NCBI GenBank assembly: GCA_046570105.1
Contig: JBKHVI010000021.1
Span: forward strand, 1 to 41,998
Length of the DNA stretch: 41,998 nucleotides
Direction of reading: 5' to 3'
Source: Bacteriovoracia bacterium
GTDB taxonomy: Bacteria; Bdellovibrionota; Bacteriovoracia; Bacteriovoracales; Bacteriovoracaceae
Part shown: positions 746 through 39,411 of the stretch, piece by piece
Numbering within the stretch: the first letter of the stretch is position 1
Layout: each line of letters begins with the position of its first letter
Notes under the pieces: model-generated
What the model saw: only the letters and a program-made list of their open reading frames with translations
Told to the model about the DNA's origin: nothing
Database searches by the model: none
Made by a program: the position numbers and the translations under genes

Positions 746-773
746 GGCGGTTCAAATCCGCCCGTCACCTCCA
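746..773 (+). repeat. 3' fragment of a tRNA (probably tRNA-Cys); att site copy 1
   Basis: GGCGG-TTCAAAT-CCGCC (T arm), CGTCACC (acceptor 3' strand), T73, CCA. No matching 5' half (GGTGACG) upstream, so not a full gene. Confidence 0.85.
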
Positions 774-783
774 AATAATTTCT

Positions 784-821
784 AGGGTTCTGAGTTTGTT
801 TTCACTCTCAGAACCCTTTTT
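784..821 (+). terminator. Rho-independent terminator after att copy 1
   Basis: AGGGTTCTGAG / CTCAGAACCCT stem followed by a T tract. Confidence 0.8.
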
Positions 822-908
822 ATTTTCAATCCACACACTTAGGTTTCAAGACGTTGTCACTCTACAGAGACACACGAGTTGTCTTGAGCTGTCGCAGACT
901 TTCTCCGG

Positions 909-969
909 TTGGCTATTTTTGGCTACACTTTTGGCTACACTGAAAAAGTGGCCCCAAAAGTGTAGCCAA
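909..969. repeat. TTGGCTA x3 direct (909, 919, 931) plus one inverted (963-969); putative integrase arm-type sites
   Basis: Read directly; same arrangement at 15024-15083. Confidence 0.65.
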
Positions 970-1035
970 CCTTCTTTTGAACATCGTTAACCCATCAATT
1001 TTCTTGAGCTTTATGACTTTACACCAGGAGGTAAT

Positions 1036-1392
1036 GTGAAAGTTTCTAGAGTAGAAAGAACAGATCAAGAAGTGATGCGTGAGCTGCGTTTGTTTCGAGA
1101 GTTTTCTTATCGTGATGTTGGAACTCTCATGAGTATCTCGCACTCGCGAGTGCAGCAGTTGGAACAAGATAAGAAACCACTGAGCGAAGAAATGAAATCC
1201 AAGTTCCTCGCCGCAATTAAATTATCACAAGATGATTGGAATCTTCTGAAGGTTAGCTCGGATAACGTAGCTGAGGTGAAGCTTGAATGCATCCAGAGGA
1301 TTTATAAATTAAGCCCACAGGAGCTAATTAAATGCGTTCTTCTGCTTAGGAATTTGAGTCTGTTCATTTTTTTAATTAGCGAGTCGGGCTGA
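1036..1392 (+). CDS. XRE/Cro-C1 family HTH regulator
   Basis: MRELRLFREFSYRDVGTLMSISHSRVQQLEQ HTH_3 pattern; AGGAGG RBS before GTG; homologous to 15156-15521. Confidence 0.8.
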   Translation: MKVSRVERTDQEVMRELRLFREFSYRDVGTLMSISHSRVQQLEQDKKPLSEEMKSKFLAAIKLSQDDWNLLKVSSDNVAEVKLECIQRIYKLSPQELIKCVLLLRNLSLFIFLISESG

Positions 1393-1610
1393 TTTTAACT
1401 GGGCCTATAGGGATGAATTACTTAAGAAGGAAATTAAAATGAAGTATTTAATGCAGGTTCTAATAGTCCTTGTAATCGATGAGATTTGATGAACAAGGAA
1501 TTACGGAAGACTTCGTGTGAACACTACATAAGAGCTCGTATTAAGATAATTTCCTCTCTGGCTCAGTCCTGACTTATAATAAAAAATATTACCGTTTGGA
1601 GGTCTTGGTT

Positions 1611-1955
1611 ATGAACACAATTCCTGAATATATGAGATTTGAAATTTCAAAGTTCAAAGAAGCGAAGAATAGGGGCGATCATCCTTCGTGTTTTCGTCAT
1701 CTCGGAAGAGCGCATGTTCTTTCCCAGTCATCGACGCTTAGTCATCTTTATGTGCACTTCCTAATGATAGGTTATGCAATTGAGCGTAAAGATACGAAAG
1801 AGATTCTAGGTCAAATCCTAAGAATTATTGTAACCGTTCCAGGTCATTTGTTAGGTCGAGTTCCTGTCGGAAATATTGGATGGTCAACAGTAGGATTAGT
1901 ACAGCGTATGCAAATTCCTGATGATCTAAGGAAAGTGATAAATAATGAGAGTTAG
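1611..1955 (+). CDS. DUF3703 family protein
   Basis: HLGRAHVLSQ...HLYVH...EILGQILR...GNIGWS; GGAGG RBS favours ATG 1611 over the track start at 1596. Confidence 0.75.
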   Translation: MNTIPEYMRFEISKFKEAKNRGDHPSCFRHLGRAHVLSQSSTLSHLYVHFLMIGYAIERKDTKEILGQILRIIVTVPGHLLGRVPVGNIGWSTVGLVQRMQIPDDLRKVINNES

Positions 1956-3107: not shown

Positions 3108-3467
3108 ATGAAATTGACTTTCGTTTTGACTTTTATTGCGATCTCGATGTTTTCAAGCCTCTCTGAGAGCTTCGCTTCCGTTGATGTCTGCGAAGAGATG
3201 AATGTAGAGAGTTCAAACCGAAGCGCAACTGTTTCTGCTATCGGTGGTGGTTCAAATCATCCTTTCACTGAGCATAAGTCTGATTGCCACGATTCAAATT
3301 GTTATGGCTCGGCTCATTTCGGACATGGATTTTATTATTCATCGATCCAAGAATCATTCGATAAATCTTCCATTCATTCTACTAAACTCGTTGATTCTTT
3401 TTATTTTTCATCCCCAATTTCTCTCGTATATCTAGACGGTCTATTCCGCCCTCCTCTGCACGCCTAG
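3108..3467 (+). CDS. Signal-peptide His/Cys-rich protein ending FRPPLHA (DUF2946/CzcI/CruR-like leader)
   Basis: N-terminal signal peptide, HKSDCHDSNCYGSAHFGH, C-terminal RPP; first gene of the czc operon. Confidence 0.65.
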   Translation: MKLTFVLTFIAISMFSSLSESFASVDVCEEMNVESSNRSATVSAIGGGSNHPFTEHKSDCHDSNCYGSAHFGHGFYYSSIQESFDKSSIHSTKLVDSFYFSSPISLVYLDGLFRPPLHA

Positions 3468-3508
3468 CCTTTTTCTTCTAATCTTCTAGTTATTTACATT
3501 GAGGTCAT

Positions 3509-4744
3509 ATGAAACAGCGCGATTATTATCGTGACTTAATACTTTGGGTCACCGTTTTATTTGTTTTTAAGCTTACCGACGTTCAGGCAAGTGCTCCAAT
3601 AAGCATTAATCAGCTCTTAGACCAAGCCGAAATGGCATCTGTTGATGTGCGAAAGGCCCTCACAGAGTTTGAAGTCACTAAAGAAGGGATCACCGAGGCA
3701 AACATGATCCCCAACCCTGAGTTGACTGTCGGTCAGTGGTCAGGAAGAGCAGGCGGTAAAAAATGGGGGCAAACTGATGTTACGTTGCTTCAGCCAATTG
3801 AATTGGCCGGAAAAAGAGGGAAGCGTATTGATAGGGCCAATGCTCAAGTCAAGGGAATGAAGGCGCAGATTGATCAAGTCGTCGCCGAAGTTCGCTTGCA
3901 AACGCTGAGCCTGCTCTACCGATTGAGGCAGGTGAACGATGAGTTAGAGTTTTTAGCAGAAGCTCAGACGACCTTTTCTCGTCTTGTGAGTAATTATCGC
4001 AAGCGTCCTCAATTATCACCAGAACAGTCAACTTCACTTTTTTTATTCGATTTAGCTGTTAAAGACTATGATTTGCAGAAGCAGGAATTTATTAGAGAAG
4101 TTAAATTGATTGGTGCAGAGCTAAAGCAGCGCACAGGGTTTGAGATAGCAGATGTTACCCACTTACTTCCTCCACGCAAAAAAATCTGGCCTAAGAATTT
4201 AAGTGGTAATCAGCTTGAGTCTCCATATTTGAGAGTACTTCGTGCGCAGACTGAAGCATCAGAGATGGAGCTAAAGCTTGCTCGCGCAGATGCCTGGCCA
4301 ACTCTCAACATTGGTCCTAGTTACTCAGCACAAGACCAGTTTGGGGAAAAAGCGAATGTCTGGGGAATTGTACTGAGCTTCCCGCTTCCTGTTTTAAATC
4401 AGAATGACGGTGCTAAAGCCCTAGCTAGTACAGGCTTGGCGGCAAGTAAGAGGCGTTTTGAGATTGAGAAGACGTCACAAGAGAACTATCGACAAGCCCA
4501 TCTTGATTCATATCTTAGCTCAATCGCTGTTCTTGAAGCACAAGCAAGTGATGGAAATATGCACAAGAAGCACGAAGAGATTGAAAGCTTTTTCCTAAGG
4601 GGACTTATCAGTAGTCCTTTAGTTATTGAGGCTCACCGCCAAATGTTCGAAAACAAAAAATTGTACCACGAGCGCGAATTAGAAACCCTAGAGGCGTACT
4701 ATCAAGTTGTGCTTCTTGATGGTGGAAAAGTTGAGGAGCTATAA
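3509..4744 (+). CDS. czcC: TolC-family outer membrane efflux protein (CzcC-like)
   Basis: PNPEL, QPIELAGKRGKR and SFPLPVLNQNDG OEP motifs; upstream of an HME-RND gene. Confidence 0.85.
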   Translation: MKQRDYYRDLILWVTVLFVFKLTDVQASAPISINQLLDQAEMASVDVRKALTEFEVTKEGITEANMIPNPELTVGQWSGRAGGKKWGQTDVTLLQPIELAGKRGKRIDRANAQVKGMKAQIDQVVAEVRLQTLSLLYRLRQVNDELEFLAEAQTTFSRLVSNYRKRPQLSPEQSTSLFLFDLAVKDYDLQKQEFIREVKLIGAELKQRTGFEIADVTHLLPPRKKIWPKNLSGNQLESPYLRVLRAQTEASEMELKLARADAWPTLNIGPSYSAQDQFGEKANVWGIVLSFPLPVLNQNDGAKALASTGLAASKRRFEIEKTSQENYRQAHLDSYLSSIAVLEAQASDGNMHKKHEEIESFFLRGLISSPLVIEAHRQMFENKKLYHERELETLEAYYQVVLLDGGKVEEL

Positions 4745-5302
4745 ATGAAAAAAATAAAGTGGATGACCTGCTTTTTTGTTGGGGTATTCCTGGTCGCTGC
4801 GCCGGCCTTTTCAAAGAATAAAGTAGTGGATAAGAAGCACAAGGATGATCACAAGGATGAGCACAAGGATGAGCACAAGGATGAGCACAAGGATGATCAT
4901 AAGGACGAACATAAGGACGAACATAAGGACGAACATAAAGAAGAACGCGAGTTGCCTGCAGGAATAACTTTCTACAATGATGAATCGGGAGAGTTTTCAT
5001 TATCTCCTGAAGCCACAAGAAATTTTACTCTTCAGTTGGCGCCAGTTGCTCTTGAAGGCGCGCTCGTACGGATTCCAACTAAGGCGATAGTTCGCTCCTT
5101 GAAAGAGACGACTATCTTTTTGAAATCGGGCGAGAAGTACTTTCAAGTAAGTGCAGAGATAGTAAGAGTGGTCTCAGGCACTGCTTTTGTGAAGCTCAAT
5201 AAAAATGTATCGAATGCGCAAGTCGTAATCCAGGGAGTTAACTTTCTCAAGACGGTACAACTCTCATTGGAAGAAGACCCATCTGAAGGCCATGGCCATT
5301 AA
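4745..5302 (+). CDS. Miniature CzcB-like periplasmic protein with His-rich repeat
   Basis: Signal peptide, (HKD/ED/E)x9, C-terminal IPTKAIV...VVIQGVNFLK...GHGH resembling the CzcB C-terminus; sits between czcC and czcA but is only 185 aa. Confidence 0.7.
   Translation: MKKIKWMTCFFVGVFLVAAPAFSKNKVVDKKHKDDHKDEHKDEHKDEHKDDHKDEHKDEHKDEHKEERELPAGITFYNDESGEFSLSPEATRNFTLQLAPVALEGALVRIPTKAIVRSLKETTIFLKSGEKYFQVSAEIVRVVSGTAFVKLNKNVSNAQVVIQGVNFLKTVQLSLEEDPSEGHGH
4838..4945 (+). repeat. 12-bp coding tandem repeat x9 (CAYAARGANGAN; HKDD/HKDE/HKEE)
   Basis: Nine consecutive units read directly. Confidence 0.95.
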
Positions 5303-5313
5303 AGTGAGAAAAC

Positions 5314-8300
5314 ATGATTAATAAAATTATTACTTTCTGTGTTCACCGAAGCGGTGTTGTATTATTTATTACCTTATTGATGATCATGGCAGGCATCTGG
5401 AGTTTTCATAACCTTCCCATTGATGCAGTCCCAGATATCACTAACAACCAAGTTCAAGTAAACACAACGGTTCCCGGTCTTGCGCCTGAAGAAATCGAAC
5501 GACTGATCACATTTCCGGTTGAAAATTCAATGCGTGGGATGGCGGGTGTTAAGCAAATTCGCTCTATCACTCGTTTTGGTCTGTCACAAGTAACAGTCGT
5601 TTTCGAGGATTCGGTTGACATCTATCGTGCTCGTCAAATGGTGGCAGAGCGTCTTAGCTCTGTGCTGAAAGAATTACCCTCGAATGCAGATTCGCGCCTT
5701 GGACCAATTTCTTCAGGGCTTGGCGAAATCTATCAATATGTTTTGGACTATAAATCTCCGGCGAAAGATCCACGCGAAAGAGATGTCCAACTCATGAATC
5801 TTAAGACGCTACAGGATTGGACAATCAAGCCTCGCCTTATGGGAGTTAAAGGAGTTACCGAGGTTAATACCTCCGGTGGTTTTGAGAAGCAATTTCATGT
5901 TCAGCCCGATTTGGCCAAGATGCGATCTCTTTCCATTCGTTTAGAAGAGATTCTGGATGCTTTGACGAAAGCTAACAAAAACGTTGGTGGTGGTTACATT
6001 CAGCAAACCTCTGAACAGTTCTTAGTACAAGGTGTCGGTATCTTTTTGTCTCCTAAGGACATTGAGCAGGTTCCCATTAAGGTGCTTGAAGATTTTCGAG
6101 TTCTTAGAGTGGGAGATGTTGCCAAGGTTAATATTGGAAAGGCATTGCGTACGGGCTCCGCTACTTTCAATGGCCGTGAGGCCGTAGTGGGCACAGTAAT
6201 GATGCTGTTGGGTGAAAATAGCCGAAACGTTTCAATCAGTGTCGATGACAAAATAAAAGAGGTTAGCAAGGGGCTGTCATCAGAGTTTGAGTTAAAAACA
6301 GTTTATAATCGTTCCGAGTTGGTTGGTGCGACCCTTGGTACTGTTGAGCATAACTTGGCGCTAGGCGCGGCACTGGTAATTCTAGTGCTATTTTTCCTCA
6401 TTGGTAATGCTCGAGCAGCGGTGATTACGGCGATTACGATCCCTCTCGCTTTATTGAGTACTTTCTTGATCATGAAGCCGTTAGGTCTCACCGGAAACTT
6501 GATGAGTCTGGGAGCTTTGGACTTCGGCATCATTGTGGACGGAACAGTAATTATTATTGATAACTGCATCCGATTTATTCAAAACCTCACTGTGAAATAT
6601 GGCAGAAAGCTTACACGAGCAGAAATTAAACAGGCGGTGATTGATGCCTGTATTGAGGTTCGGACAGCCGCAGGTTTTGGTGAGTTAATTGTCGTTATCG
6701 TGTTCATCCCTCTATTTGGTCTAGTTGGAGTGGAAGGAAAGATGTTTCGCCCTATGGCCATGACATTTTCTATCGCAGTTTTTGGGGCGTTGGTACTGTC
6801 CTTTACCGTAATTCCTGCTCTGGCGGGAATACTGTTGAGTGGAAATACAAAAGATAAAGAACCACTCTTGATGAAGTGGGCGCATAAGTTCTATCTGCCG
6901 TGTCTTAATTTCGCTCTGAGACAGAAAGCACTCATTATCAGTAGCGCTGTAGTCATGATGATCGGAGCAGGCGTGCTGTTTGGGCGACTAGGCTCAGAGT
7001 TCTTGCCTCAGCTGGCAGAAGGCTCATTTGCCTTTCACATGATTAGACCTGTTAATACGGGTCTCGATCAATCAATCGAGATGCAAAAAAGAGCGGAGCT
7101 TGTTCTCATGGACCTTCCCGAGGTCGAACACATCTTCTCACGTATCGGCATGAGTGAAGTCGCAACTGATCCAATGGGTGTAAACGTTTCTGATACGTAC
7201 ATCATTTTGAAGAATCGTGATCTTTGGCCTGAGCGTAATAAAAACAACAAACATAGTTTTGAGTCTTTGGCACAAGAGATGGTTTCTCGCTTAGAAAGGG
7301 AAATGCCAGGGCAAACCTATTTGGCTTCTCAGCCAATTCAGATGCGTTTCAATGAGTTGCTTGAAGGAACTCGAGCGGATGTATCCGTAAAGATCTTTGG
7401 ACCTGACCTCAAGGTTAATATGGAAGTGGCGAAAAAAATCCAAGCGATTGTCAGCAAAGTGCAAGGTGCCGGCGACGTAGAAGTTGATCTGGCAGGACTT
7501 TCCCCTGTTCTCCGTGTGAATCCTAAACCAGAAGCACTGCTACGCTACGGTGTTGCTAGCTCCGACGTTTTGGAAGCAGTTTCCATCGCTCTCGGTGGTG
7601 AAGAGGCGGGGATGTTCTATGAGCAAGAAAAACGCTTTCCAATCCTTGTACGCTTACCAGAGGAGCAGCGTTCTGATTTGGATCTCATCGGTTCTTTACC
7701 CGTAGGAACTGGTGTCACCCAGACTACGCCTTTGTCTTATCTTGCAGATATTAGTTTTACCGAGACATTTGGCTCAATCACTCGAGAGGATTCAAACAGG
7801 CGATCAGCTGTTTTGATTAACCTACGTGGGCGCGACACAGAAAGTTTCGTGCAAGAAGCCCAAAAAGTTGTCGCTGACCAAGTTGAAATACCTAAAGGGC
7901 ATTTCATTGAGTGGGGAGGCAATTTTAAAAATCTTCAAGAAGCAAAAGATCGACTCATGATTCTTGCGCCTATCGCCCTCGCGATTGTGCTCTTTATGGT
8001 CTACAGCGCTTTCGGAAGTTTCGGTGAGACATTACTAATCTTTTCTTGTGTTCCACTCGCTTTGGTAGGAGGGGTACTTGGCTTGATTGTTCAGGGACTT
8101 CCGTTCAGTATCTCAGCGGGGGTTGGGTTTATTGCGCTCTGTGGGATTGCCGTCTTAAACGGGGTCGTTTTAGTAAATTATTTCAACCAACTAAAAGCCG
8201 AAGGCGTGACGGGAGAAAAGATCGTACTTGATGGATGCCTCATTAGGCTTCGTCCCGTATTGATGACGGCCTTAGTAGCTGTATTTGGATTTTTGCCTAT

Positions 8301-8454
8301 GACAATGTCAGAGGGAGTGGGAGCTGAAGTTCAACGGCCTCTTGCCACAGTCGTCGTAGGAGGAATCATTTTCTCTACGGCCCTAACACTGCTTGTGCTA
8401 CCTGTTTTATTTAATATCTTTGAAAAAAAGCTGCATGGAAAAGTAGCCCATTAG
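5314..8454 (+). CDS. czcA: CusA/CzcA family heavy-metal RND efflux transporter
   Basis: 1046 aa; LPIDAVPDITNNQVQV, NLMSLGALDFGIIVDG, RLRPVLMTA, GAEVQRPLATVVVGG. Confidence 0.95.
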   Translation: MINKIITFCVHRSGVVLFITLLMIMAGIWSFHNLPIDAVPDITNNQVQVNTTVPGLAPEEIERLITFPVENSMRGMAGVKQIRSITRFGLSQVTVVFEDSVDIYRARQMVAERLSSVLKELPSNADSRLGPISSGLGEIYQYVLDYKSPAKDPRERDVQLMNLKTLQDWTIKPRLMGVKGVTEVNTSGGFEKQFHVQPDLAKMRSLSIRLEEILDALTKANKNVGGGYIQQTSEQFLVQGVGIFLSPKDIEQVPIKVLEDFRVLRVGDVAKVNIGKALRTGSATFNGREAVVGTVMMLLGENSRNVSISVDDKIKEVSKGLSSEFELKTVYNRSELVGATLGTVEHNLALGAALVILVLFFLIGNARAAVITAITIPLALLSTFLIMKPLGLTGNLMSLGALDFGIIVDGTVIIIDNCIRFIQNLTVKYGRKLTRAEIKQAVIDACIEVRTAAGFGELIVVIVFIPLFGLVGVEGKMFRPMAMTFSIAVFGALVLSFTVIPALAGILLSGNTKDKEPLLMKWAHKFYLPCLNFALRQKALIISSAVVMMIGAGVLFGRLGSEFLPQLAEGSFAFHMIRPVNTGLDQSIEMQKRAELVLMDLPEVEHIFSRIGMSEVATDPMGVNVSDTYIILKNRDLWPERNKNNKHSFESLAQEMVSRLEREMPGQTYLASQPIQMRFNELLEGTRADVSVKIFGPDLKVNMEVAKKIQAIVSKVQGAGDVEVDLAGLSPVLRVNPKPEALLRYGVASSDVLEAVSIALGGEEAGMFYEQEKRFPILVRLPEEQRSDLDLIGSLPVGTGVTQTTPLSYLADISFTETFGSITREDSNRRSAVLINLRGRDTESFVQEAQKVVADQVEIPKGHFIEWGGNFKNLQEAKDRLMILAPIALAIVLFMVYSAFGSFGETLLIFSCVPLALVGGVLGLIVQGLPFSISAGVGFIALCGIAVLNGVVLVNYFNQLKAEGVTGEKIVLDGCLIRLRPVLMTALVAVFGFLPMTMSEGVGAEVQRPLATVVVGGIIFSTALTLLVLPVLFNIFEKKLHGKVAH

Positions 8455-8458
8455 TCTT

Positions 8459-8490
8459 AAGGGGCGAAGATTTTTTTCTTCGCCCCTTTT
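8459..8490 (+). terminator. Rho-independent terminator after czcA
   Basis: AAGGGGCGAAGA / TCTTCGCCCCTT stem with T tail. Confidence 0.75.
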
Positions 8491-8503
8491 ATGAGGGGAT
8501 TCG

Positions 8504-8854
8504 ATGGATTCAAAAGTTTTAAAGCAAGCGATCCAGAATGAAATTGATTTGTATCTGGAAGCACGTAGAAGAAAAATACAATCACTTTGCGTACACCATC
8601 TTGGCAGGGCACATATACTCGCGCAGAAAAGTGTTGTTATACACTTGATTGTTCACGCTTTAATGCTTGTTCATGCCTGTTCTCGTAGAGATATTAAAGA
8701 AATCAAAGGTCAGCTTGTCCGTTTAATTGCGACTGTTCCTGGCCATGTATTCAATAAATTAACTAGAGGTAATATAGGCTGGTCCAGTGTAAGTATGTTT
8801 GAAAGAATGGATATCCCTTCAGATCTAGAACCTTATTTTTCACAAAAAGTTTAA
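8504..8854 (+). CDS. DUF3703 family protein (second copy)
   Basis: HLGRAHILAQ...VH...EIKGQLVRL...VPGH...GNIGWS; paralog of 1611-1955. Confidence 0.75.
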   Translation: MDSKVLKQAIQNEIDLYLEARRRKIQSLCVHHLGRAHILAQKSVVIHLIVHALMLVHACSRRDIKEIKGQLVRLIATVPGHVFNKLTRGNIGWSSVSMFERMDIPSDLEPYFSQKV

Positions 8855-8856
8855 CG

Positions 8857-10998
8857 ATGAAGAAAGAGTTTTCGTATTACATCAAGGCGATGGATTGCAT
8901 CAATGAAGAGAATGATATCCGCAGTCTCGTGAAAGACTTCGAAGGAATCTATGGTTTGGATTTCCAGTTGAGTAAGCGAAGACTTGTCATTCAGATGGAT
9001 GAAGCAAGAGAAGTAGAATTCAAACAACGAATCGCTTCTAAGGGCTACATAGCGCAGCCTGTGATTGAAAAAACAGGTCTTACTAGATTCGCAGAAGAAA
9101 TCAAGTTGGGCATCAGTTTGGTATTGGCTTTCGCTGCGGAACTTTTGAGTATTATGGCTGATTTTGGGCCAAGTCAGAAATATGTTGTTGGCGCGATTGC
9201 TTTGATAGCAATCTTTTTATCAGGTTTCGGAGTCTATAAGAAAGGCTTTCTTGCACTCTTCAAGTTGAAGCTTAATATCAATGCCTTAATGACGATCGCT
9301 GTCACCGGAGCATTTGTTATTGGAGAATGGCCTGAAGCAGCGATGGTTTCAGCGTTATTTTCGATAGCAGAGTGGATAGAAAGCAAAGCGGTTGACCGGG
9401 CAAGAGGATCAATACGCAAACTCCTTTCTATCTTGCCGGAAGAATCCGAAGTGAAAATTGCCGGCATTTGGAAAAAGATGAGAACGGCAGATGTAGAGGT
9501 CTCAAGTGAGATTCGTGTTCGTCCTGGTGAGCGTATTCCACTTGATGGCTTAATAACCGAAGGGGCATCTGAAATCGATCAATCTCCAGTAACTGGGGAA
9601 AGTCGGGCAGTTGAAAGAAAGGTCGGCGACAGCATTTTTGCGGGCTCTATAAATCTGAGTGGGATGTTGGTTTTTGAGAATTCCACTGTGGCTACTAACA
9701 ATACGGTTTCGCGAATAATTGAACTTGTTGAGAACACCCAGTCGAAAAAAGCCCCCATTGAAAGATTCGTAGATCAATTTTCTAAACGTTATACACCGAT
9801 TGTCTTCTTTGTTTCTCTTGCAATCGTTTTTGTAGGGCCCTATGTGATGGGCTGGACATTTGAAGCTTCAATCTATAAAGCGCTTGTCCTACTCGTGATC
9901 GCCTGCCCCTGTGCTCTCGTGATTTCAACTCCCATTACGATTGTTAGCGCTTTGACAACGTCTGCCAAGATAGGTGTGTTGATGAAAGGGGGGCATGCTA
10001 TTGAACGTCTTCATCGCTTAAAAGCGATTGCCTTAGATAAGACTGGAACCATCACTTATGGGGCACCTTCTTTAGCAGATAATATATTAGTGGCAAAAGG
10101 CAACGATCAAAAAACTTCCAACGATTTAGCATTGGGTTTGTCGAAGCTTTCAGATCATCCTGTATCGAAGGCGATTGCAAAAGGGCTAGAAAGTTCAAGT
10201 GCAGGCGAGATAAAAGATTTTACAGCGATTGCAGGGCAAGGGGTAAGTGGAAGCTTTGAAGGTAAAAAGATTTATCTCGGAAACAAAAAACTTGGCGAAA
10301 GCTTAGGAGTAATGACTGAAGAGATAGCTAGAGAAATCTCTGGTTTGGAAAGCCGGGGGCGCTCAGTTTCTCTATTGATAGAAGAAAAAAAAGTCATCGC
10401 AATTTTTGGTGTAACAGACAAAATCAAAGAAGGGTCAAGCGAAGCTATAAAAATGCTTAAAGATATGGGAATTCATGTTTCCATGTTGTCCGGAGACAAC
10501 GCTAAAACGGCCAATCTGATTGGTCTGCAAGCAGGCATATCTGATGTAAGAGGTGAACTTTTACCAAAAGATAAACTTGTTCTCATTCAAGAATTACAAC
10601 AAAAATTCGGTCCTACAGGGATGACCGGTGATGGCATCAATGATGCACCAGCACTGGCCCAAGCAGATCTTGGTTTTGCGATGGGTAAGATGGGAACAGA
10701 TTCAGCAAAGGAAACAGCTGATGTTGTTATTATTGGTGACGACTTAAGGAAGATTCCGGAAACGATTCTCCTCGCTCACCGAACCCATTCAATCTTATGG
10801 CAAAACATTGTTTTTGCTATTGGGGTCAAGGCAGTGTTCCTCATACTTACATTTCTCGGACTCGCCAGTATGTGGATGGCCGTCTTCGCAGATGTAGGTG
10901 CGACGCTAATTGTCGTGTTTAACGGAATGAGGCTGCTCAGGTCTGATCAGGTAGGGCCCCTAGAAATGAGTGATAATTGTACGAAAGAATGCTGCTAG
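8857..10998 (+). CDS. cadA: P1B-type heavy-metal ATPase (Cd/Zn/Pb; CadA/ZntA)
   Basis: N-terminal MDCINEE, TGES, CPC, DKTGT, HP, GDGINDAP, MAVFAD. Confidence 0.92.
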   Translation: MKKEFSYYIKAMDCINEENDIRSLVKDFEGIYGLDFQLSKRRLVIQMDEAREVEFKQRIASKGYIAQPVIEKTGLTRFAEEIKLGISLVLAFAAELLSIMADFGPSQKYVVGAIALIAIFLSGFGVYKKGFLALFKLKLNINALMTIAVTGAFVIGEWPEAAMVSALFSIAEWIESKAVDRARGSIRKLLSILPEESEVKIAGIWKKMRTADVEVSSEIRVRPGERIPLDGLITEGASEIDQSPVTGESRAVERKVGDSIFAGSINLSGMLVFENSTVATNNTVSRIIELVENTQSKKAPIERFVDQFSKRYTPIVFFVSLAIVFVGPYVMGWTFEASIYKALVLLVIACPCALVISTPITIVSALTTSAKIGVLMKGGHAIERLHRLKAIALDKTGTITYGAPSLADNILVAKGNDQKTSNDLALGLSKLSDHPVSKAIAKGLESSSAGEIKDFTAIAGQGVSGSFEGKKIYLGNKKLGESLGVMTEEIAREISGLESRGRSVSLLIEEKKVIAIFGVTDKIKEGSSEAIKMLKDMGIHVSMLSGDNAKTANLIGLQAGISDVRGELLPKDKLVLIQELQQKFGPTGMTGDGINDAPALAQADLGFAMGKMGTDSAKETADVVIIGDDLRKIPETILLAHRTHSILWQNIVFAIGVKAVFLILTFLGLASMWMAVFADVGATLIVVFNGMRLLRSDQVGPLEMSDNCTKECC

Positions 10999-13430: not shown

Positions 13431-13512
13431 TTAACCGCAACCACCTTTACTAGAGCCTTTACCCAAGATGATAAACGTTCCAGACTGTCCGCTGGATAAT
13501 ATCGGGAACCTA
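13431..13512 (-). pseudogene. Internally deleted copy of the Gly-tailed ORF remnant at 32377-32637
   Basis: Encodes SGQSGTFIILGKGSSKGGCG* versus SGQSGTFIILGEGSGTGGGG*; about 180 bp missing at a junction near 13495. Confidence 0.7.
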
Positions 13513-13596
13513 ATTTCAATCATTTCTTATTTAAATCCAAACTGTCCCCTCTGACTTTTTAATCAAATCGACAATGTATAACGAAAATTCGTCAGC

Positions 13597-14666: not shown

Positions 14667-14684
14667 TTGGCTATTTTTTGGCTA
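14667..14684. repeat. TTGGCTA x2; putative right-arm sites of island A
   Basis: Same heptamer as the left end, about 40 bp before GTAACCTCCA. Confidence 0.6.
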
Positions 14685-25601: not shown

Positions 25602-25613
25602 GGATGAATTTGT

Positions 25614-27731: not shown

Positions 27732-27744
27732 GAAGGAGTGTCGG

Positions 27745-27819
27745 ATGAAATTTTTTCGCTTTGTGGCTACGGCCGCAAAGAAAGTGGCTCGCTTCTTCAA
27801 ATCAAACTGCTGTGAGTAA
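27745..27819 (+). CDS. Putative 24-aa small protein MKFFRFVATAAKKVARFFKSNCCE
   Basis: AAGGAG RBS 6 nt upstream; directly follows the oxidase stop; below the ORF-track size cutoff. Confidence 0.5.
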   Translation: MKFFRFVATAAKKVARFFKSNCCE

Positions 27820-27966
27820 TCAATTAATTAGGCTTCAGTTTCGTTAGCACTAAAGCGTGTAGCAGTCTCTGTTCAATTGTTGGGCACTTCCTCTAACCAA
27901 ATTCTTGACTCAGTTAGTCTGTGCTTGACTAATTTTTTTGGGATAGGCGGTTGTTGCTTAACGACT

Positions 27967-28716: not shown

Positions 28717-28786
28717 AGCAAAATCCTAAGTAAGTGCATGCCGGATCTTACAATTATTTCGTCTGCTCCGGTCGTAATATTATCCT

Positions 28787-29611: not shown

Positions 29612-29636
29612 GGATGTTCAATCCAGCTCTATCAAA

Positions 29637-30899: not shown

Positions 30900-30971
30900 A
30901 GTTTATCTTAAACCGTTTTCATGCACATGTAACGATTTTGCCTGAGATACATAAAATCTCAGGCAAAGGTT

Positions 30972-31337
30972 CTAGTGACTCATCGAACGACAAGACTCGG
31001 CACATTTCTTACAGGCCTTCACGCAATCTGCCATCACCGCATCGCCGTGTGCATGGGCGGCACAAGACTCAGCACAGAGGTCGCAGACCTTCGCGCAGAG
31101 CTGGCAGTGCTCGTAAGCGAACTGCGAGTTAGCGAGCATCAGCCCCATACTCATCTTGCACATGTCTGCGCATTCGATCATGAGTTGGATGTGAGCCTTT
31201 TCTGCGTGTTTGCCACCTTTCTCTAAGCAGTGACTGAGGCATTTCGTTGACGCAGAAAAGCTTGCGAAGCAATCAGCGATACATTGCTCCATGTTTTTCT
31301 CTGATTTAACCGACATATCGTTTGGGGAAACTTGCAT
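30972..31337 (-). CDS. Four-helix-bundle copper storage protein (Csp3/DUF326-like)
   Basis: Repeated CxxxC/CxxC; CADMC, HCQLCAKVCDLCAESC, CVKACKKCAESC; no Tat signal. Confidence 0.9.
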   Translation of the reverse strand: MQVSPNDMSVKSEKNMEQCIADCFASFSASTKCLSHCLEKGGKHAEKAHIQLMIECADMCKMSMGLMLANSQFAYEHCQLCAKVCDLCAESCAAHAHGDAVMADCVKACKKCAESCRSMSH

Positions 31338-32376: not shown

Positions 32377-32637
32377 CTAGCCTCCGCCACCTGTACCAGA
32401 GCCTTCACCTAAAATGATAAAAGTTCCTGATTGGCCGCTGATGTTACCAATGTCTTGGACATTATCTTTTTTGATGAACTGAGTGGCATCACGCTTAATG
32501 TTCAAAACGGTGCCGTCTTTAAGAGTGATACTTTCTTCATTGAGAATGAGCCTAGCAGTGTCAGCGTCAATCGTGAGTGTCTCTGGCTTTGAGCCTGGGA
32601 CAACGATCTCTCTGTAGATAATATCGGGAACCTCAAT
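32377..32637 (-). pseudogene. Start-less 86-codon ORF remnant ending GEGSGTGGGG
   Basis: Open frame IEVPDIIYRE...GEGSGTGGGG* preceded by TGA; homologous copy at 13431-13512. Confidence 0.55.
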
Positions 32638-32718
32638 TCAGTCAATTCTTATTAAAATCGAAACTGTCTCCTCTAACTTTTTAATCAAATCGACAATATA
32701 TAACGAAAATTCGTCAGC

Positions 32719-33969
32719 ATGTCTGACCAAAGGGATTATATGGCCTACAGAAAATTTGATATCTCTGTTAAGCGTAAAATCGCAGAAACTAAGAACTTAA
32801 ATCTTTTTCCTGAATTAAAAATACCCCGGACTACTGCTCAATATTGGATATCTCAGAGTAAAGAAATTGCAGAAGCATCAAATCAGTCTGATAAAAAAAA
32901 CGATTTCATGCAAGAAGAAGCGAAGCTTTCTCTAAAACTTGAGGTAGAGGTTTATAAAACACTGCTGGTGAAAATTATGGGGACATATGACTTTAGCAGC
33001 TTAAAGGGAGCTCAGAATAAAAAATTTATTGTTGAGTTAGTTTCGAGATTGAAAGGGTCTATGCCAAAGAGTGCTTTGATAAGAATGTTGGGGATGTCTT
33101 CTTCCAAGTTTTATCGCTGGGAGACTGAGGTTCTAGGTTGCCGGTTCCAGAGGGAGAATTGTCAGCCAAGTCTTCCTCATCAAGTCTCGCTAGTGGAGCA
33201 GAATAAGATGCTAGAGCTTGCGCGAAATAACAAGTTAGCGCATCTGAGTGTTAAAAGCCTTATGTATTATGCTCAGAGAGAAGGTGGGATTTATCGTGGT
33301 TATGACACCTGGTTAAAGTATTTAAAACTTAACGGTGTCATGAGAGTGCGAAATCATAAAAGGAAAAAGAAATATGCAGAAGGTATACGAGCACGAAGAG
33401 CTAATCAGATTTGGCATATCGACATAACAATCGTTCGTATAAAAACAAGGGAGAGATATTATATTCAAATGGCGGTTGATAACTTCAGTAGACTTATTGT
33501 TGGGTGGAAAATAAGTGATCGAAAGAGCTTGGATATCACATTGAAAACGCTGAAAGAGGTAAACTTCCATAATCCCAAATTTCTACTTTGTGATGCTGGT
33601 ACGGAAAACAGAGCTTCCGAAGTTTCAAGATTTCTTTTGGGCAGGGGAATTATTCAATTAATTGCGAATATAGATGTTCGATATTCAAATTCAATTGTGG
33701 AGGCGGTCTTTCGGCAGTTGAAATACGCGATCGATTTTCAAAAGATCAGAAGCTTAAAGAATCTAAAAAATAAAATCGCTTGGTTTGTGGAACAACATAA
33801 TCACAATGTGCCACATTCCAGTTTGTATGGCGCAACTCCCTTTGAGGTATATTTTGATATTTTTAATAAGGAAGTTTTCAAGGAAGAAATTAATGAAAAA
33901 AGAAAGATGTTATTGGAAAGTAGAAAAAATAGTTATCTTCAATGCAAGAGTTGTATTCCATACATTTAG
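32719..33969 (+). CDS. DDE (rve integrase-core) transposase, IS3/IS481-like
   Basis: NQIWHIDIT, VDNFSRLIVGW, CDAGTEN, NSIVEAVF..LK, PHSSL.G.TP; start may be ATG 32740; no terminal IRs recognised. Confidence 0.9.
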   Translation: MSDQRDYMAYRKFDISVKRKIAETKNLNLFPELKIPRTTAQYWISQSKEIAEASNQSDKKNDFMQEEAKLSLKLEVEVYKTLLVKIMGTYDFSSLKGAQNKKFIVELVSRLKGSMPKSALIRMLGMSSSKFYRWETEVLGCRFQRENCQPSLPHQVSLVEQNKMLELARNNKLAHLSVKSLMYYAQREGGIYRGYDTWLKYLKLNGVMRVRNHKRKKKYAEGIRARRANQIWHIDITIVRIKTRERYYIQMAVDNFSRLIVGWKISDRKSLDITLKTLKEVNFHNPKFLLCDAGTENRASEVSRFLLGRGIIQLIANIDVRYSNSIVEAVFRQLKYAIDFQKIRSLKNLKNKIAWFVEQHNHNVPHSSLYGATPFEVYFDIFNKEVFKEEINEKRKMLLESRKNSYLQCKSCIPYI

Positions 33970-34014: not shown

Positions 34015-34353
34015 TTAAGCAATTTCTTGGACGATCTCGGGATTGACTTCAATGATTTGTAGCAGGCGCCTCACACTTGGAGATGGTTTTCGAAGTCCCT
34101 GTTCCCAGTGTTTTACAGCGGCTGACTTCACACCGAGTAACTGGGCCAGTAGATCCTGAGTGAGATGATATTTGTGGCGTATGTTTTTGATCGCGGTAGA
34201 ACTGTAATTAGGTGGAGTCGCAGCGATGCGAGCGACTGTTTCTCTCAGATCAAGCTCTCCGCGAGTATGCTGAAGGCCCTCCTCAACAGAGGCCAAGAGC
34301 ATGCTACCAAAGTTACTTGAGGTTATTTTTTGCTTTTTTGTTTTGGTTGCCAT
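34015..34353 (-). CDS. XRE-HTH antitoxin (HigA-like)
   Basis: IKNIRHKYHLTQDLLAQLLGV...VKHWEQGLRKPS...LLQII..NP; downstream of a RelE-type toxin. Confidence 0.85.
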   Translation of the reverse strand: MATKTKKQKITSSNFGSMLLASVEEGLQHTRGELDLRETVARIAATPPNYSSTAIKNIRHKYHLTQDLLAQLLGVKSAAVKHWEQGLRKPSPSVRRLLQIIEVNPEIVQEIA

Positions 34354-34691
34354 GCTTTTAACTCCTGTGATGCTGTTTTCAATGCGCTGACTTCGGCTTT
34401 CGTTAAAGTGTCTTTCACCGACTTCGGGTATATGAGAAACAAAAAAGTTCTCTCATAGGCTTCAAGATCAAAATAAATCACTCGATAGCCGCCACTTTTC
34501 CCTCTTCCACCTTTCTGTTCAGCGACGCGCACTTTGGTAAACCCGCCAGTGCCCTTAATGAGATCTCTCTTTGAGGCCGGTAGCTCGAGATCAGTTAGTA
34601 CTGCTTGCTGAATTCGGCCTAATAGTTCTTTGTCGTTTTCAGCTTCGATCAAGGAAGTAAAAATTAAGCTCTCAATGAATAAACGCTGCAC
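34323..34691 (-). CDS. RelE/HigB-like type II toxin
   Basis: LIKGTGGFTKVRV...GRGKSGGYRVIYF...LFLIYPK..KDTLT. Confidence 0.88.
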   Translation of the reverse strand: MQRLFIESLIFTSLIEAENDKELLGRIQQAVLTDLELPASKRDLIKGTGGFTKVRVAEQKGGRGKSGGYRVIYFDLEAYERTFLFLIYPKSVKDTLTKAEVSALKTASQELKAWQPKQKSKK

Positions 34692-35628: not shown

Positions 35629-36045
35629 ATGGAAAAGATCACGATTGGAAAATTGGCAGAGATGGCGGGAGTAGGGGTTGAGACGGTTCGTTTCTATCAA
35701 AGAAAAGAGCTGCTGCGAGAACCTGAAGCGCGTGGTGCAGTGAGAACTTATCACGAAGAAGACGCGCAAAGAATTATCTTTATCAAGAAAGCGCAAGAGC
35801 TGGGCTTCTCACTTGCTGAAGTCAAAGAACTCTTAGAACTCAACACCAAGCCGCGCATCACTTGCGGGGGCGTGAAGAAAAAAACGCTCAATAAAATTTC
35901 AGAAATCGAAACAAAAATAGCTGATCTACAACGCATGAAGGCCGGGCTCGAGAAGCTCGCCTGTGCCTGTGATTCACAACAAGACGATTATAAACAATAC
36001 AAAGTCCAAGAGTGTTTTCAACTTGGGCTGGGCTGCGATTGCTAA
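35629..36045 (+). CDS. MerR-family metal-responsive regulator
   Basis: TIGKLAEMAGVGVETVRFYQRK...FIKKAQELGFSLAEVKELL; Cys in RITC, CAC, EC...CDC. Confidence 0.92.
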   Translation: MEKITIGKLAEMAGVGVETVRFYQRKELLREPEARGAVRTYHEEDAQRIIFIKKAQELGFSLAEVKELLELNTKPRITCGGVKKKTLNKISEIETKIADLQRMKAGLEKLACACDSQQDDYKQYKVQECFQLGLGCDC

Positions 36046-36055
36046 AGGAGAATTT

Positions 36056-36463
36056 ATGAAACGCTTTCATATTCACGTCGGAGTCAAAGATCTTACTCAC
36101 TCAATTCAGTTTTACTCGACTCTCTTTGGTCAAGGGCCCACAAAAGTTAAAGAAGACTACGCCAAATGGATGCTAGAAGATCCACGTATTAACTTTGCCA
36201 TCTCAACTCGCGTAGTCGAGGGTGTCGATCATCTGGGAATGCAAGTAGATGAAGCAGACGAATTGAATGTTCTCGCTCAGCGACTGAAAAATGCTGATTT
36301 GGGCGTGTACGGGGAAGGCAGCACGACTTGCTGTTACGCTGAATCGAGCAAGGCATGGGTGAAAGATCCATCCGGTATTGCTTGGGAAACTTATCACACC
36401 ATGAATGATGCCGAGACGTTTAACGGTAAACAAGAGGCAAAAGCTAAAAAGAGTTGCTGTTAA
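36056..36463 (+). CDS. ArsI/CadI family VOC metalloenzyme
   Basis: [51 protein letters not shown]. Confidence 0.88.
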
Positions 36464-36464
36464 T

Positions 36465-36545
36465 ATGACGAAGAAAAATATTATGTTTCTCTGCACGGGC
36501 AACTCTTGTCGCACACAAATGGCTGAAGGGTTTGCCCGTAAATAA
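36465..36545 (+). pseudogene. arsC: Truncated arsC (first 26 codons)
   Basis: [26 protein letters not shown]; diverged copy of the 5' end of the gene at 38342. Confidence 0.85.
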
Positions 36546-36579
36546 GGATCTTCTAGGTTGACAGTGGGTAGTGCTCAGA

Positions 36580-36606
36580 TGTGAGTTCAAAATTTGCGAC
36601 CTAAGC
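36580..36606. repeat. Degenerate copy of the 27-bp palindrome
   Basis: TGTGAGTTCAAAATTTGCGACCTAAGC; 19/27 match to 14255-14281 by manual alignment. Confidence 0.45.
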
Positions 36607-36673
36607 TTAATTTTGTGTGGAGAGAGTTTGCTAAGCTATTGAAAACACATTTGTAGGTGTGGTTTATATCCAA

Positions 36674-36749
36674 TAACTACGATATATTAATAGTTAATGT
36701 CTGGATTTTTTAAAAAAATCTGCCGATAAATATGATATATTCATAGTTA
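36674..36749. promoter_or_regulatory. Two 23-bp imperfect inverted repeats (putative AbiEi operators)
   Basis: TAACTACGATATATTAATAGTTA (36674-36696) and TAAATATGATATATTCATAGTTA (36727-36749). Confidence 0.6.
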
Positions 36750-36761
36750 ATAGAGAGAAAA

Positions 36762-37409
36762 ATGAGCTCAGAGTTTTTAAATAGAATTGAAGAGGATTTA
36801 AAAATTCCATTGTTTACGGACGATGATTTGCGGCTGGTTTTTCGAGATAAGGAGCCATCAGCGATCTATAACTCTCTGACCTATCATCTGAAGAATCATC
36901 ATTTAGAAAGATACAGAAGAGGGTTGTATTCACTTTCAATTAAAGGAAAGGGAAAGCATAAATTTTCAAAATTCAAGTTGGCCAATAAACTAGTGCTTCA
37001 TAGTTTTGTTTCATTTGAGTCAGCTTTATCTCATCACAATCTCATTCCCGAAGCGGTGTACGAAGTAACATCAGCGACCTTAAGTAAAAATGTAGTATTT
37101 GAGAATTCACTTGGAAGGTTTAGCTTTTCATATTCTCCAGTGGAGCCATTTTATTTGGGGGTTGAGATGGATGAAGTTACTGGAGCAAAAATTGCCAATC
37201 CAGTAAGGGCCTTATTTGACCTCATTAATTCCAGAAGAAAGCTTTATGACAAGGCAGAAGACTTAGAAAGTGATTTCAGGATTGATTTGCATGAACTTAA
37301 AACTCATTTAAGTTTTTTCAAGCCAGGGGATATCCTCGAGCTAGGTGAACTTTATAAAAAGAAGACCACTCGAAATTTATCAACGATTTTAGTGAGAGAT
37401 TTAATGTGA
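36762..37409 (+). CDS. abiEi: Type IV TA antitoxin AbiEi family
   Basis: RYRRGLY, SFVSFESALSHHNLIPEAVYEVTS, IANPVRALFD. Confidence 0.85.
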   Translation: MSSEFLNRIEEDLKIPLFTDDDLRLVFRDKEPSAIYNSLTYHLKNHHLERYRRGLYSLSIKGKGKHKFSKFKLANKLVLHSFVSFESALSHHNLIPEAVYEVTSATLSKNVVFENSLGRFSFSYSPVEPFYLGVEMDEVTGAKIANPVRALFDLINSRRKLYDKAEDLESDFRIDLHELKTHLSFFKPGDILELGELYKKKTTRNLSTILVRDLM

Positions 37410-38251
37410 AAGATATTATTCAAAATCGATTAGATAATTATTATGAGACCCTGACAGCGGAAAATGAATTGAATGCTCTTAAGGAAATTACTCAAGAAGT
37501 CGCCTTGTATGCTCTCTATAAAGTGGGATTCTTTGAAAAAGCCTGTTTTATAGGCGGTACATGCTTAAGAATCGTTCATGGAATGGATAGATTTTCGGAA
37601 GACTTAGATTTTTCTACCAGAACGATCGATTCTAAATTTGATTTAGATACCTACCTAGAAAAAGCAATGGCAGTTATGAAACCTTATGGGTACGGGCTTA
37701 CCATTGATGATAAAGATCTTAAGGATAAAAGCGTCCAATCGCGATTTCTTAAAGATGACTCCATAAAGAAAATTCTGACTTTTAAGCACAAGCAAGATGA
37801 AAGGCAAAAAATTAAAATCAAAGTCGAGATCGATACGGAACCTCCCATTGGAGCAATTGAGAAGACAGAGTTTATCGACTTTCCCGATGATTTTCAGATT
37901 TTGTCTTATGATATCGCGAGTCTCATGTCAGGAAAGATTCACGCATTATTATGTAGACCCTATATCAAGGGGCGAGATTGGTATGATTTTTCTTGGTATA
38001 TTAAAAACAATCATTCACCGAACTTAAAGCTACTAGAAAATGCCCTCAAGCAATTAGGTCCGTGGAAAGGACAAAGTGTTCAGGTGGATGAAAAATTTTT
38101 AAAAGATGCTTTGATTAAGAAGGTGGTCTCACTTGATTGGGATGATGTTAAACAAGATGTTAGGAAGTTCCTTAATCTCGAAAAAGCAAAATCTTTGGAA
38201 CTTTGGAGTGCTGATTTTTTTGAAAGTAAGATCCATAAACTTAAAATTTAG
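37406..38251 (+). CDS. abiEii: Type IV TA nucleotidyltransferase toxin AbiEii family
   Basis: FIGGTCLRIVHG.DRFSEDLDFS, KIKVEID, KIHALLCR..KGRDWYD. Confidence 0.92.
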   Translation: MKDIIQNRLDNYYETLTAENELNALKEITQEVALYALYKVGFFEKACFIGGTCLRIVHGMDRFSEDLDFSTRTIDSKFDLDTYLEKAMAVMKPYGYGLTIDDKDLKDKSVQSRFLKDDSIKKILTFKHKQDERQKIKIKVEIDTEPPIGAIEKTEFIDFPDDFQILSYDIASLMSGKIHALLCRPYIKGRDWYDFSWYIKNNHSPNLKLLENALKQLGPWKGQSVQVDEKFLKDALIKKVVSLDWDDVKQDVRKFLNLEKAKSLELWSADFFESKIHKLKI

Positions 38252-38265
38252 TTTGGAGTAAAATC

Positions 38266-38318
38266 TCACAACAAGACGATTATAAACAATACAAAGTCCA
38301 AGAGTGGTTTCAGCTTGG
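38266..38318 (+). repeat. Duplicate of the 3' end of the MerR-family gene
   Basis: 38266-38306 is identical to 35974-36014 (41 bp); similarity continues for about 12 bp. Confidence 0.9.
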
Positions 38319-38341
38319 ATTGGTTTTTTTTAGGAAAACAC

Positions 38342-38773
38342 ATGATTAAAAAAAATATTATGTTCCTATGTACCGGCAACTCCTGTCGCTCACAGATGGC
38401 GGAAGGGTTTGCTCGTAAATACTGGGGCCACGATTTTGAGGTGTATTCTGCGGGCACTAAAAAGCACGGCATGAATGAGCGCGCTATGAAAGTGATGCTT
38501 GAGGCGGGCGTGGATATCTCTTCGCACTTCTCTAAAACGACTGATGAGTTACCAAAGGTTAGTTTTAATTTTGTAGTGACCGTCTGCGATGCGGCCAAAG
38601 AGAGTTGTCCCTATTTTCCTGGTGGCAAGATCGTGCATGTTGGATTTCAAGACCCTCCCGCACTGACCAAAGAGATGACGAATGAAGAAGAAATCCTGAC
38701 GGTTTATCGAAGAGTGAGAGATGAGATTGAAGCCGCGATCAAAGTACTCCCTGAACTTTTAGGAAAGGTATAA
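38342..38773 (+). CDS. arsC: Arsenate reductase, thioredoxin-coupled LMW-PTP type
   Basis: [37 protein letters not shown]. Confidence 0.93.
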   Translation: MIKKNIMFLCTGNSCRSQMAEGFARKYWGHDFEVYSAGTKKHGMNERAMKVMLEAGVDISSHFSKTTDELPKVSFNFVVTVCDAAKESCPYFPGGKIVHVGFQDPPALTKEMTNEEEILTVYRRVRDEIEAAIKVLPELLGKV

Positions 38774-39411
38774 TGAAAGCTAAATTTTGGTCAGAGCTTC
38801 TGGGCACAGCTTTTCTGATGATGATCGTGGCGGGATCTGGGATTATGGCGCAAAATCTCTTCCCAGGTCAGAATGGATTGGCCTTACTCGCTAACTCAAT
38901 TGCAACGGGTGCTGGTCTCTTTGTACTCATACAATGTTTGGAACCGATATCAGGTTGCCACATTAATCCAGTCGTGAGCTTGGTTGAGTTTCTTAAGGGA
39001 CGTTTGTCCAAAAAGGATTTCGGCGTTTATGTATGCGCCCAGGTGATGGGAGCTTATATAGGAGTGATTCTGACTCATCTTATGTTTAATCAGGAAGTCT
39101 TTCAGCAAGCCTCAGTCGATAGGTCTGGATTGAATATTTTTATCTCAGAAATTATTGCGACTTTTGGTTTGATATCAGTCATCGCCCTGGCGGGTAAGAA
39201 GCATGTTGAGTTCGCACCGATAAGTATTGCCGCTTATATCACCTCGGCTTACTGGTTCACTTCATCCACTTCTTTTGCCAATCCAGCAGTCACTTTCGGA
39301 CGGATGTTTACGGATACCTTTGCTGGCTTAAATCCTGAATTCTTTCCTATGTTCTTATGTGCTCAGTTGATAGGAGCATTGGCGGCATTCTTATTATTGC
39401 GAAGGTACTAA
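38773..39411 (+). CDS. MIP/aquaporin family arsenite channel (AqpS-like)
   Basis: ISGCHINPVV and YWFTSSTSFANPAVT; coupled to arsC. Confidence 0.88.
   Translation: MKAKFWSELLGTAFLMMIVAGSGIMAQNLFPGQNGLALLANSIATGAGLFVLIQCLEPISGCHINPVVSLVEFLKGRLSKKDFGVYVCAQVMGAYIGVILTHLMFNQEVFQQASVDRSGLNIFISEIIATFGLISVIALAGKKHVEFAPISIAAYITSAYWFTSSTSFANPAVTFGRMFTDTFAGLNPEFFPMFLCAQLIGALAAFLLLRRY

Follow-up and report, generated by a model that had tools for sequence, protein, structure and literature searches.

Probable accretion and decay of metal-resistance islands at the tRNA-Cys hotspot of a Bacteriovoracaceae genome

How did three blocks of metal-resistance genes, set apart by pieces of a tRNA gene and accompanied by no integrase, come to lie in tandem on one contig of a Bacteriovoracia bacterium? 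The stretch that raises this question (the window) is 41,998 nt long and comprises the entire contig JBKHVI010000021.1 (C21) of assembly GCA_046570105.1, a host genome (G000) of 3.0 Mb in 131 contigs that is 88 per cent complete. In this Bacteriovoracaceae genome the window makes up the distal portion of an integration hotspot at tRNA-Cys, and there is good reason to think that it was built by tandem accretion and decay of islands from an integrative and conjugative element (ICE) family. An earlier note on this DNA had proposed tandem stacking at a regenerating tRNA-Cys site, a picture that the comparisons below support. These covered 237 family genomes including G000 (236 others) and, for window positions 1–20000, four metagenome runs of the 22 listed; handles denote family genomes (G), loci (L), sequencing runs (X) and contigs of G000 (C).

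The separators are fragments of the target gene itself. The sequence CCCGTCACCTCCAAATAAT occurs as an exact 19-mer at 761, 14876 and 34871, where 0.01 matches are expected by chance; 761–836 equals 34871–34946 over 76/76 nt, and the copy at 14876 agrees at 59/76 positions without gaps. The earlier note had reported these repeats and read them as a tRNA-Cys 3' end, and both points hold: they match the 3' end of the single tRNA-Cys(GCA) of G000, which is intact at C107:3169–3246, on another contig than the window (ARAGORN). No tRNA gene was found by ARAGORN within the window, and in run X7 the sequence from window 744 onward stands directly on an intact tRNA-Cys. The three repeats are thus real, but as module limits they fall short: a fourth attachment (att) site at 14717–14732, behind TTGGCTA arms, ends module 1, and the proposed outer limit at 39411 is no boundary, since the last plus-strand CCTCCA of the window lies at 34878. 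There are four junctions rather than three, with 30, 7, 21 and 13 perfect tRNA nucleotides. The pattern of arms plus core is weak alone (8 per cent of shuffled sequences match), and the fourth site rests on homology to L108 and G241; a terminator and REP-like (repetitive extragenic palindromic) unit of ∼140 nt separates it from the copy at 14876. Integrases have sub-site preferences, and the unequal lengths of the tRNA copies suggest different integrases or later damage, not one cassette machine. The junctions and the element nearest the tRNA (element 0) read as follows:

162..671 (+): last open reading frame (ORF) of element 0, with a Fis-type helix-turn-helix (HTH) at its C-terminus (Pfam HTH_8)
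681..700 (+): TGTGCGGAT tandem repeats, which may serve element 0 as arm sites and which recur on C107, ∼80 nt past the intact tRNA-Cys
744..773 (+): 30 nt of the tRNA-Cys 3' end copied without mismatch; here attR of element 0 and attL of module 1 are fused (supported by run X7)
784..824 (+): terminator-like hairpin supplied by the element, with a second copy at 34894 and a variant near 14899 (from sequence)
14667..14732 (+): attR of module 1, two TTGGCTA copies and then a 7-nt ACCTCCA core at 14726–14732 (homology to L108 and G241)
14733..14888 (+): hairpin resembling a terminator, REP-like GGATG repeat and 21-nt tRNA 3' copy (14868–14888); the same unit follows tRNA-Cys in G002 at 82 per cent identity
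34835..34946 (+): degenerate tRNA-Cys 3' half (34835–34883; 34/49 nt, last 13 perfect) and terminator, the boundary of modules 2 and 3, without arms (from sequence)

The GGATG-containing repeat (window 14785–14875) recurs after terminators and tRNAs across the family (L016, L035, L036, L043, L046, L053 and L054), and the tRNA 3' copy that follows it in G002 has the tRNA variant proper to G002.

That no tyrosine or serine recombinase ORF is present, as the earlier note stated, proved correct for the window: no site-specific recombinase appears among its 48 ORFs (Pfam), and whereas G000 has 11 matches to PF00589 and one to PF00239, none of either lies on C21; the tRNA-proximal element 0 probably spans an assembly gap. 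A recombinase of another kind had been overlooked, namely an IS3-like DDE transposase of an insertion sequence (IS) at 32719–33969, with a 5' fragment at 13495–13765. The nearest integrases in G000 lie on C13, beside a tRNA-Arg island, and on C42; at 44–45 per cent identity they fall outside the tRNA-Cys clade described below (unrooted FastTree tree), and no integrase of that clade was found in G000, which is 88 per cent complete and has element 0 lying in a gap. Because TGTGCGG tandem repeats both follow the tRNA-Cys of C107 and precede window position 744, element 0 probably spans the gap between C107 and C21.

What an intact occupant of this site looks like is evident from relatives. Read outward, a complete ICE would consist of the tRNA, a terminator, TTGGCTA-like arms, an XRE regulator, cargo, transfer genes (type IV secretion system or T4SS, coupling protein and relaxase), a tyrosine integrase, an ORF6N gene or toxin–antitoxin pair, a second set of arms and a CCTCCA core. 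Such an element would integrate at the tRNA 3' end and restore the tRNA, the layout being seen in relatives and the mechanism being that expected of tyrosine integrases. G043 holds a complete 48.7-kb ICE running from tRNA-Cys to attR through arms, XRE, metal cargo, conjugation block, integrase and ORF6N. Its conjugation genes comprise TraG, CagX, TrbI, a coupling protein and a Replic_Relax-like gene; PF00589, PF19044, PF03524, PF03743 and PF12696 score above cut-off, and the relaxase (PF13814) below it. G209 has a complete 17.4-kb island from tRNA-Cys to attR with an integrase only. The integrase also occupies the tRNA-distal end in G100 (MobC-like gene, relaxase, integrase, arm, short tRNA-His core) and in G112 (czc cargo, transfer-like genes, integrase). 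At L108 the order is integrase C-terminus, full ORF6N, arms, ACCTCCA and the next element's left end, with 73 per cent identity to window 14193–14697 over 506 nt. In G241 an SSB-like gene, an excisionase-like gene, a 382-aa integrase and a 172-aa ORF6N precede ACCTCCAAATAATTTCTAGGGTTCT; this ORF6N is 84 per cent identical over window 14202–14566, and both end in the same ACCTCCAAATAATTTCTAGGGTTCT. In G108, G252 and L108 an integrase-bearing element is followed, immediately after its attR, by a second left end.

The G241 integrase as query matched 75/237 genomes at E ≤ 1e-80. Among the best 30 loci, 25 were at least 52 per cent identical, and of those 25 an ORF6N was present in 10 and arms with a CCTCCA core within 1.5 kb in 17; a tRNA-Cys-specific integrase clade is spread over Bacteriovoracaceae genera. 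The triple-arm pattern of the left end was found in 14/237 genomes (16 matches). Thirteen of these are genomes other than G000, of which 10 have it near tRNA-Ala, tRNA-His or tRNA-Cys and one at a contig end that starts with att; matches in G135 and G173 were set aside, with no tRNA or XRE nearby. The att–terminator motif gave four matches in genomes, two in Bacteriovoracaceae, one in Bdellovibrionia and one in an unrelated phylum.

Module 1 shows how such an element may lose its integrase. Modules 1 and 2 both start with terminator, triple TTGGCTA repeats and XRE gene, and only module 1 also ends in TTGGCTA and a short core. Its features are:

909..969 (+): putative left arm-type sites, three TTGGCTA copies and an inverted one; same layout after tRNA-Cys, tRNA-Ala and tRNA-His in relatives
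1036..1392 (+): XRE/HTH regulator, the gene that opens the family backbone (Pfam)
3108..10998 (+): CzcCBA-type RND (resistance–nodulation–division) efflux block and Cd/Zn P-type ATPase (TIGR00914 and TIGR01512 above cut-off; Pfam)
13495..13765 (+): fragment from the 5' end of the IS3-like element, 89 per cent identical to 32617–32887
14202..14582 (+): 5'-truncated ORF6N gene, with the deletion junction near 14193–14202 (L108, G241, run X7)

The window's ORF6N begins at about codon 44–48 of the 172-aa protein of G241, and the run X7 contig tracks the window up to 14201 and then diverges; the truncation, set against L108 and G241, and this divergence together point to a deletion junction near 14201/14202 at which the integrase was removed. 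Module 1 carries no integrase and no transfer genes, it retains both attL and attR at the sequence level, and related ICEs or integrative and mobilizable elements (IMEs) exist in G043, G209, G241 and L108. Having apparently lost the transfer and integrase block and kept both att ends, it fits the definition of a cis-mobilizable element (CIME), which modules 2 and 3 do not. No arm sites precede 34871, and for module 3 no right att lies within the contig, which may end first. As a separate observation, the CzcB-like protein of module 1 contains a 12-nt tandem repeat (4812–4955, encoding HKD[DE]) whose copy number differs in L112 and among runs.

Were integrase-less ends a conserved class, a shared structure might be expected among them. 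The right-end core pattern returned 25 sites in 22/237 genomes (two control matches), which were classed by position relative to integrase matches and by flanking DNA. An upstream integrase is intact or cut by the contig end at 16/25 and truncated or frameshifted at 3/25 (G153, G188 and the first unit of G251). Three more (the second G251 unit, G052 and G016) have no integrase in the DNA available, each with a different upstream structure; those of G052 and G016 lie behind what we take to be different transposase types. Two of the 25 are uninformative, at contig ends, and one, in G247, is a hybrid pseudo-tRNA. A relaxed pattern gave three matches, one of them in G151 without an integrase. Within this search, biased toward intact ends, the sites form a decay series whose lesions differ from one another; they do not make up a conserved family without integrases.

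The decay appears to have gone further in the outer modules:

15024..15535 (+): left arms and XRE gene (15156–15521) of module 2; similarity to L112 ends at 15535
15536..31337 (no strand assigned): copper-related and other cargo, with a CopZ-like gene, a CsoR/RicR-to-multicopper-oxidase cluster (20755–27731) and a Csp1-like gene (Pfam, profile matches)
32617..33969 (+): IS3-like DDE transposase element (ORF 32719–33969), right end undefined (rve; NF033516 below cut-off)
34015..34691 (−): RelE-type toxin and HTH antitoxin pair (Pfam); such pairs lie between integrase and attR in several relatives
35629..39411 (+): arsenic block of MerR, ArsI/CadI, ArsC and MIP, split by AbiEi/AbiEii (36762–38251) (Pfam, profile matches)

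The earlier labels of Zn/Cd/Co, Cu and As cargo are all upheld by these families: CzcCBA-type RND and Cd/Zn P-type ATPase in the first module, CsoR/RicR, multicopper oxidase, CopZ-like and Csp1-like proteins in the second, and MerR, ArsI/CadI, ArsC and MIP in the third. The G043 ICE holds homologues of the eight-gene CsoR-to-oxidase cluster of module 2 (33–64 per cent aa identity), and G007 carries arsenic genes 88 and 83 per cent identical, without AbiE, just after tRNA-Cys. Arms and an XRE gene are missing from module 3, as is a right att up to the contig end. The AbiEi/AbiEii insertion is flanked by duplicated fragments of the merR end and arsC start (35974–36544 and 38266–38421), and in two genomes a member of the IS3-like family immediately precedes the C-terminal fragment of an integrase (G000 C30:31128–32031, and G136 at L065 17129–18658).

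Do the modules travel as att-bounded units? It had been predicted that they break exactly at the repeats in relatives, and this is only so for the left ends: left-end boundaries coincide with att repeats, and the boundary between Zn and Cu cargo does not. L226 has a left end of module-1 type on tRNA-Cys, and L112 one of module-2 type. In G044 (96 per cent identical to window 767–1370) and L226 the module-1 left end is followed by unrelated genes, and in L112 the module-2 left end, up to 15535, is joined to the czc cargo of module 1. In runs X2 and X5, which come from two other metagenome studies, 105 letters without an att site connect 13494 with 15536, so that Zn and Cu cargo are continuous; the upstream neighbour of the X2 czc block also differs. 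In G009, 11940–13494 is joined to a copy of 32378–32617 and then to a toxin–antitoxin pair, and the window segments 13432–13494 and 32378–32440 are copies of one backbone gene that is intact in G009. Judged from sequence comparison, the left ends mark genuine integrations and the cargo is not tied to them. Five of ten pattern matches in metagenomes were set aside as chance, having no similarity to G000.

These observations may be read as a history. Newcomers at the tRNA displace older residents outward, and age probably increases in that direction, with element 0 the youngest and module 3 the oldest. Residents would then decay: module 1 would have lost its transfer and integrase block through a deletion ending inside ORF6N; module 2 keeps its left end, its right side now being the IS, the toxin–antitoxin pair and a decayed tRNA half; and module 3 keeps only att and terminator. 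Cargo and left ends are also reshuffled among the islands by recombination that ignores att sites, as comparison with relatives shows, and both deletion and exchange between islands may have been helped by the IS copies near the right part of modules 1 and 2. The cargo, on family matches, would serve metal efflux and detoxification, and this probably favors retention of the remnants.

It is also possible, if doubtful, that no serial integration took place and that a single composite Zn–Cu ICE, of the form seen in X2 and X5, was split when an attR–attL junction block (13495–15535) recombined in from another array. The join of 13494 to 15536 with 105 letters between, the sharp 15535/15536 boundary that is visible from the other side in L112, and the two copies of one backbone gene at 13432–13494 and 32378–32440 all agree with such a split. 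The X2/X5 form is, however, equally explained as a later deletion fusion, X7 has the IS fragment and 13539–14201 in common with the window, and the units would in any case remain parts of decayed ICEs.

A further suggestion, and an improbable one, is that module 1 is still live, such that the integrase of an incoming tRNA-Cys ICE acts on its conserved arms and core and excises it alone or with its neighbor. Predatory Bacteriovoracaceae would then trade metal-resistance blocks across genera by way of a common modular pool made up of left ends, cargoes and helper ICEs.

More doubtful again is the view of the earlier note, that a family of cargo islands lacking integrases depends on a helper in trans for excision, transfer and re-integration and stacks like cassettes. 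Both ends of module 1 have intact geometry, near-identical left ends occur in another genus and in other samples, a related ICE transfer block is co-resident on C30 of G000 (VirB9/VirB10-like genes, coupling protein, relaxase-like gene; one query for a TraG-like ATPase had no match in G000), and the family has three further integrase-less right ends. Yet a dedicated family of non-autonomous cassettes finds no support, as those ends (3/25) share no structure, module 1 bears a deletion scar and modules 2 and 3 have no right-end arms. Mobilization in trans is likewise unsupported. In G000, 88 per cent complete and with element 0 in a gap, no integrase of the needed clade was found, and the best matches reach 44–45 per cent and belong to other clades. 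No joint between the ends of module 1 was seen in the assembled contigs of the four runs, though contigs drop rare variants and circles, and the cargo joins disregard att. The integrase has indeed gone from the units of the window, but the supposition that related elements lack their own largely fails: relatives keep theirs, most right ends of the family stand behind an integrase, and module 1 is a deletion derivative. Integron cassette arrays, which stack cargo units at one site, are superficially alike; unlike them, the window has units of 14–20 kb, unequal tRNA-derived att sites and no IntI.

That the assembly merged co-occurring strains into a false tandem order is very improbable, for although C113 of G000 offers an alternative 2.9-kb path from 14785 to 34193 and the probable source run has mixed alleles, an independent assembly of that run yields pieces 11160–14894 and 14865–15941 with no differences and a flat depth of ∼12–15, and comparable tandems are present in G108, G252, G251 and L108.

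Several points nevertheless count against accretion and decay as set out here. Module 1 may still be a possible substrate for an integrase, given that the arm-to-core span of its right end is 66 nt, equal to that of the integrase-bearing L108. The sequence that lies beyond 14201 in the run X7 contig was not seen. The order of events is a reconstruction made without a rooted test, and the source sample holds strain variants (the C113 branch and mixed alleles in the run data). Lastly, integrase-less ends are undercounted, since the right-end pattern was built on sites next to integrases and fails to match the attR of the window itself.

Accretion with decay at a tRNA is an established process. 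The ICESt1 work of Pavlovic et al. in 2004 reportedly dealt with CIMEs and accretion tandems. One account defines CIMEs and describes a three-step route to ICE/IME–CIME tandems by site-specific accretion (PMC5704250); the window differs from these in its Gram-negative predatory host, its tRNA-Cys target and the presence of both ends in module 1 only. In Dehalococcoides, tandem islands at ssrA, each with different cargo and 15 without integration modules, are likewise parted by short direct repeats that copy the 3' end of the target (PMC3146451); those involve serine recombinases, ssrA and dehalogenases, whereas a tyrosine integrase, a T4SS-bearing ICE family and metal cargo are at issue here. 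The tycheposon islands of Prochlorococcus also grow by serial integrations in which newcomers push older elements outward, with partial tRNA copies as separators and degenerate remnants, but they have no conjugation genes and often carry replication modules, while autonomous relatives here are ICE- or IME-like (10.1101/2020.12.28.424599). The iOriT islands resemble the window as chromosomal cargo without relaxase or mating genes (10.64898/2026.01.13.699239). They are defined, however, by an origin of transfer (oriT); none was identified in the window, which has no similarity to the mobilization blocks of eight relatives.

What is new is the element family itself, in Bacteriovoracaceae, with a tRNA-Cys integrase clade and definable arm and core sites, spanning complete ICEs with heavy-metal cargo through a graded series to integrase-less remnants. 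The literature searched, supplements being outside the search, gave no description of a tRNA-Cys ICE family in Bacteriovoracaceae; the available parts of two papers mention islands and degraded integrases but not this family (PMC12642874; PMC5760749). The family is relevant to the acquisition of resistance traits by predatory bacteria of polluted water and soil, and it could yield a means of site-specific integration in a lineage for which few genetic tools exist.

Element 0 has few kin. No DNA match to it was found in the 236 other family genomes, and in viral contigs its ORF gave only five weak matches (34 per cent), with no tRNA or integrase nearby. A supposed integrase remnant in the C107 tail was dropped when a six-frame reading gave no integrase signal. 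Window 1–670 has a depth of ∼77 in the probable source run against ∼13 elsewhere, and a loose end there carries different tandem repeats; the end of element 0 is shared with a more abundant element, possibly a phage. Viral contigs contained no match to the att–terminator pattern, no confirmed relative of the deamidase-like protein and no match to the 27-mer near the deletion, and among the plasmid matches listed (the best 8 of 40) identity was below 30 per cent.

The island superfamily extends to other loci of G000: C86 has an island at tRNA-Ala with arms and a double-HTH XRE, C13 one at tRNA-Arg with coupling protein, relaxase-like gene and integrase, C48 a right end of tRNA-His type, and C30 the transfer block named above. 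Mini-units of ∼0.9 kb, made of arms and XRE, lie between degenerate halves of tRNA-Ala and tRNA-Cys (L087 1–3250 in G106, and the tRNA-Ala island of G112), and the tRNA that one such block follows differs between two genomes, being tRNA-Cys in the first and tRNA-Ala in the second. In L179 (G153) a distance of 6.9 kb separates two complete tRNA-Cys genes, after which come a 5'-truncated integrase and attR. Finally, a 27-nt palindrome inside the ORF6N coding sequence (14255–14281) has intergenic variants at 33983–34009, 34797–34823 and 36580–36606, close to the IS, the toxin–antitoxin pair and AbiE, and ORF6N proteins may use it as an operator.

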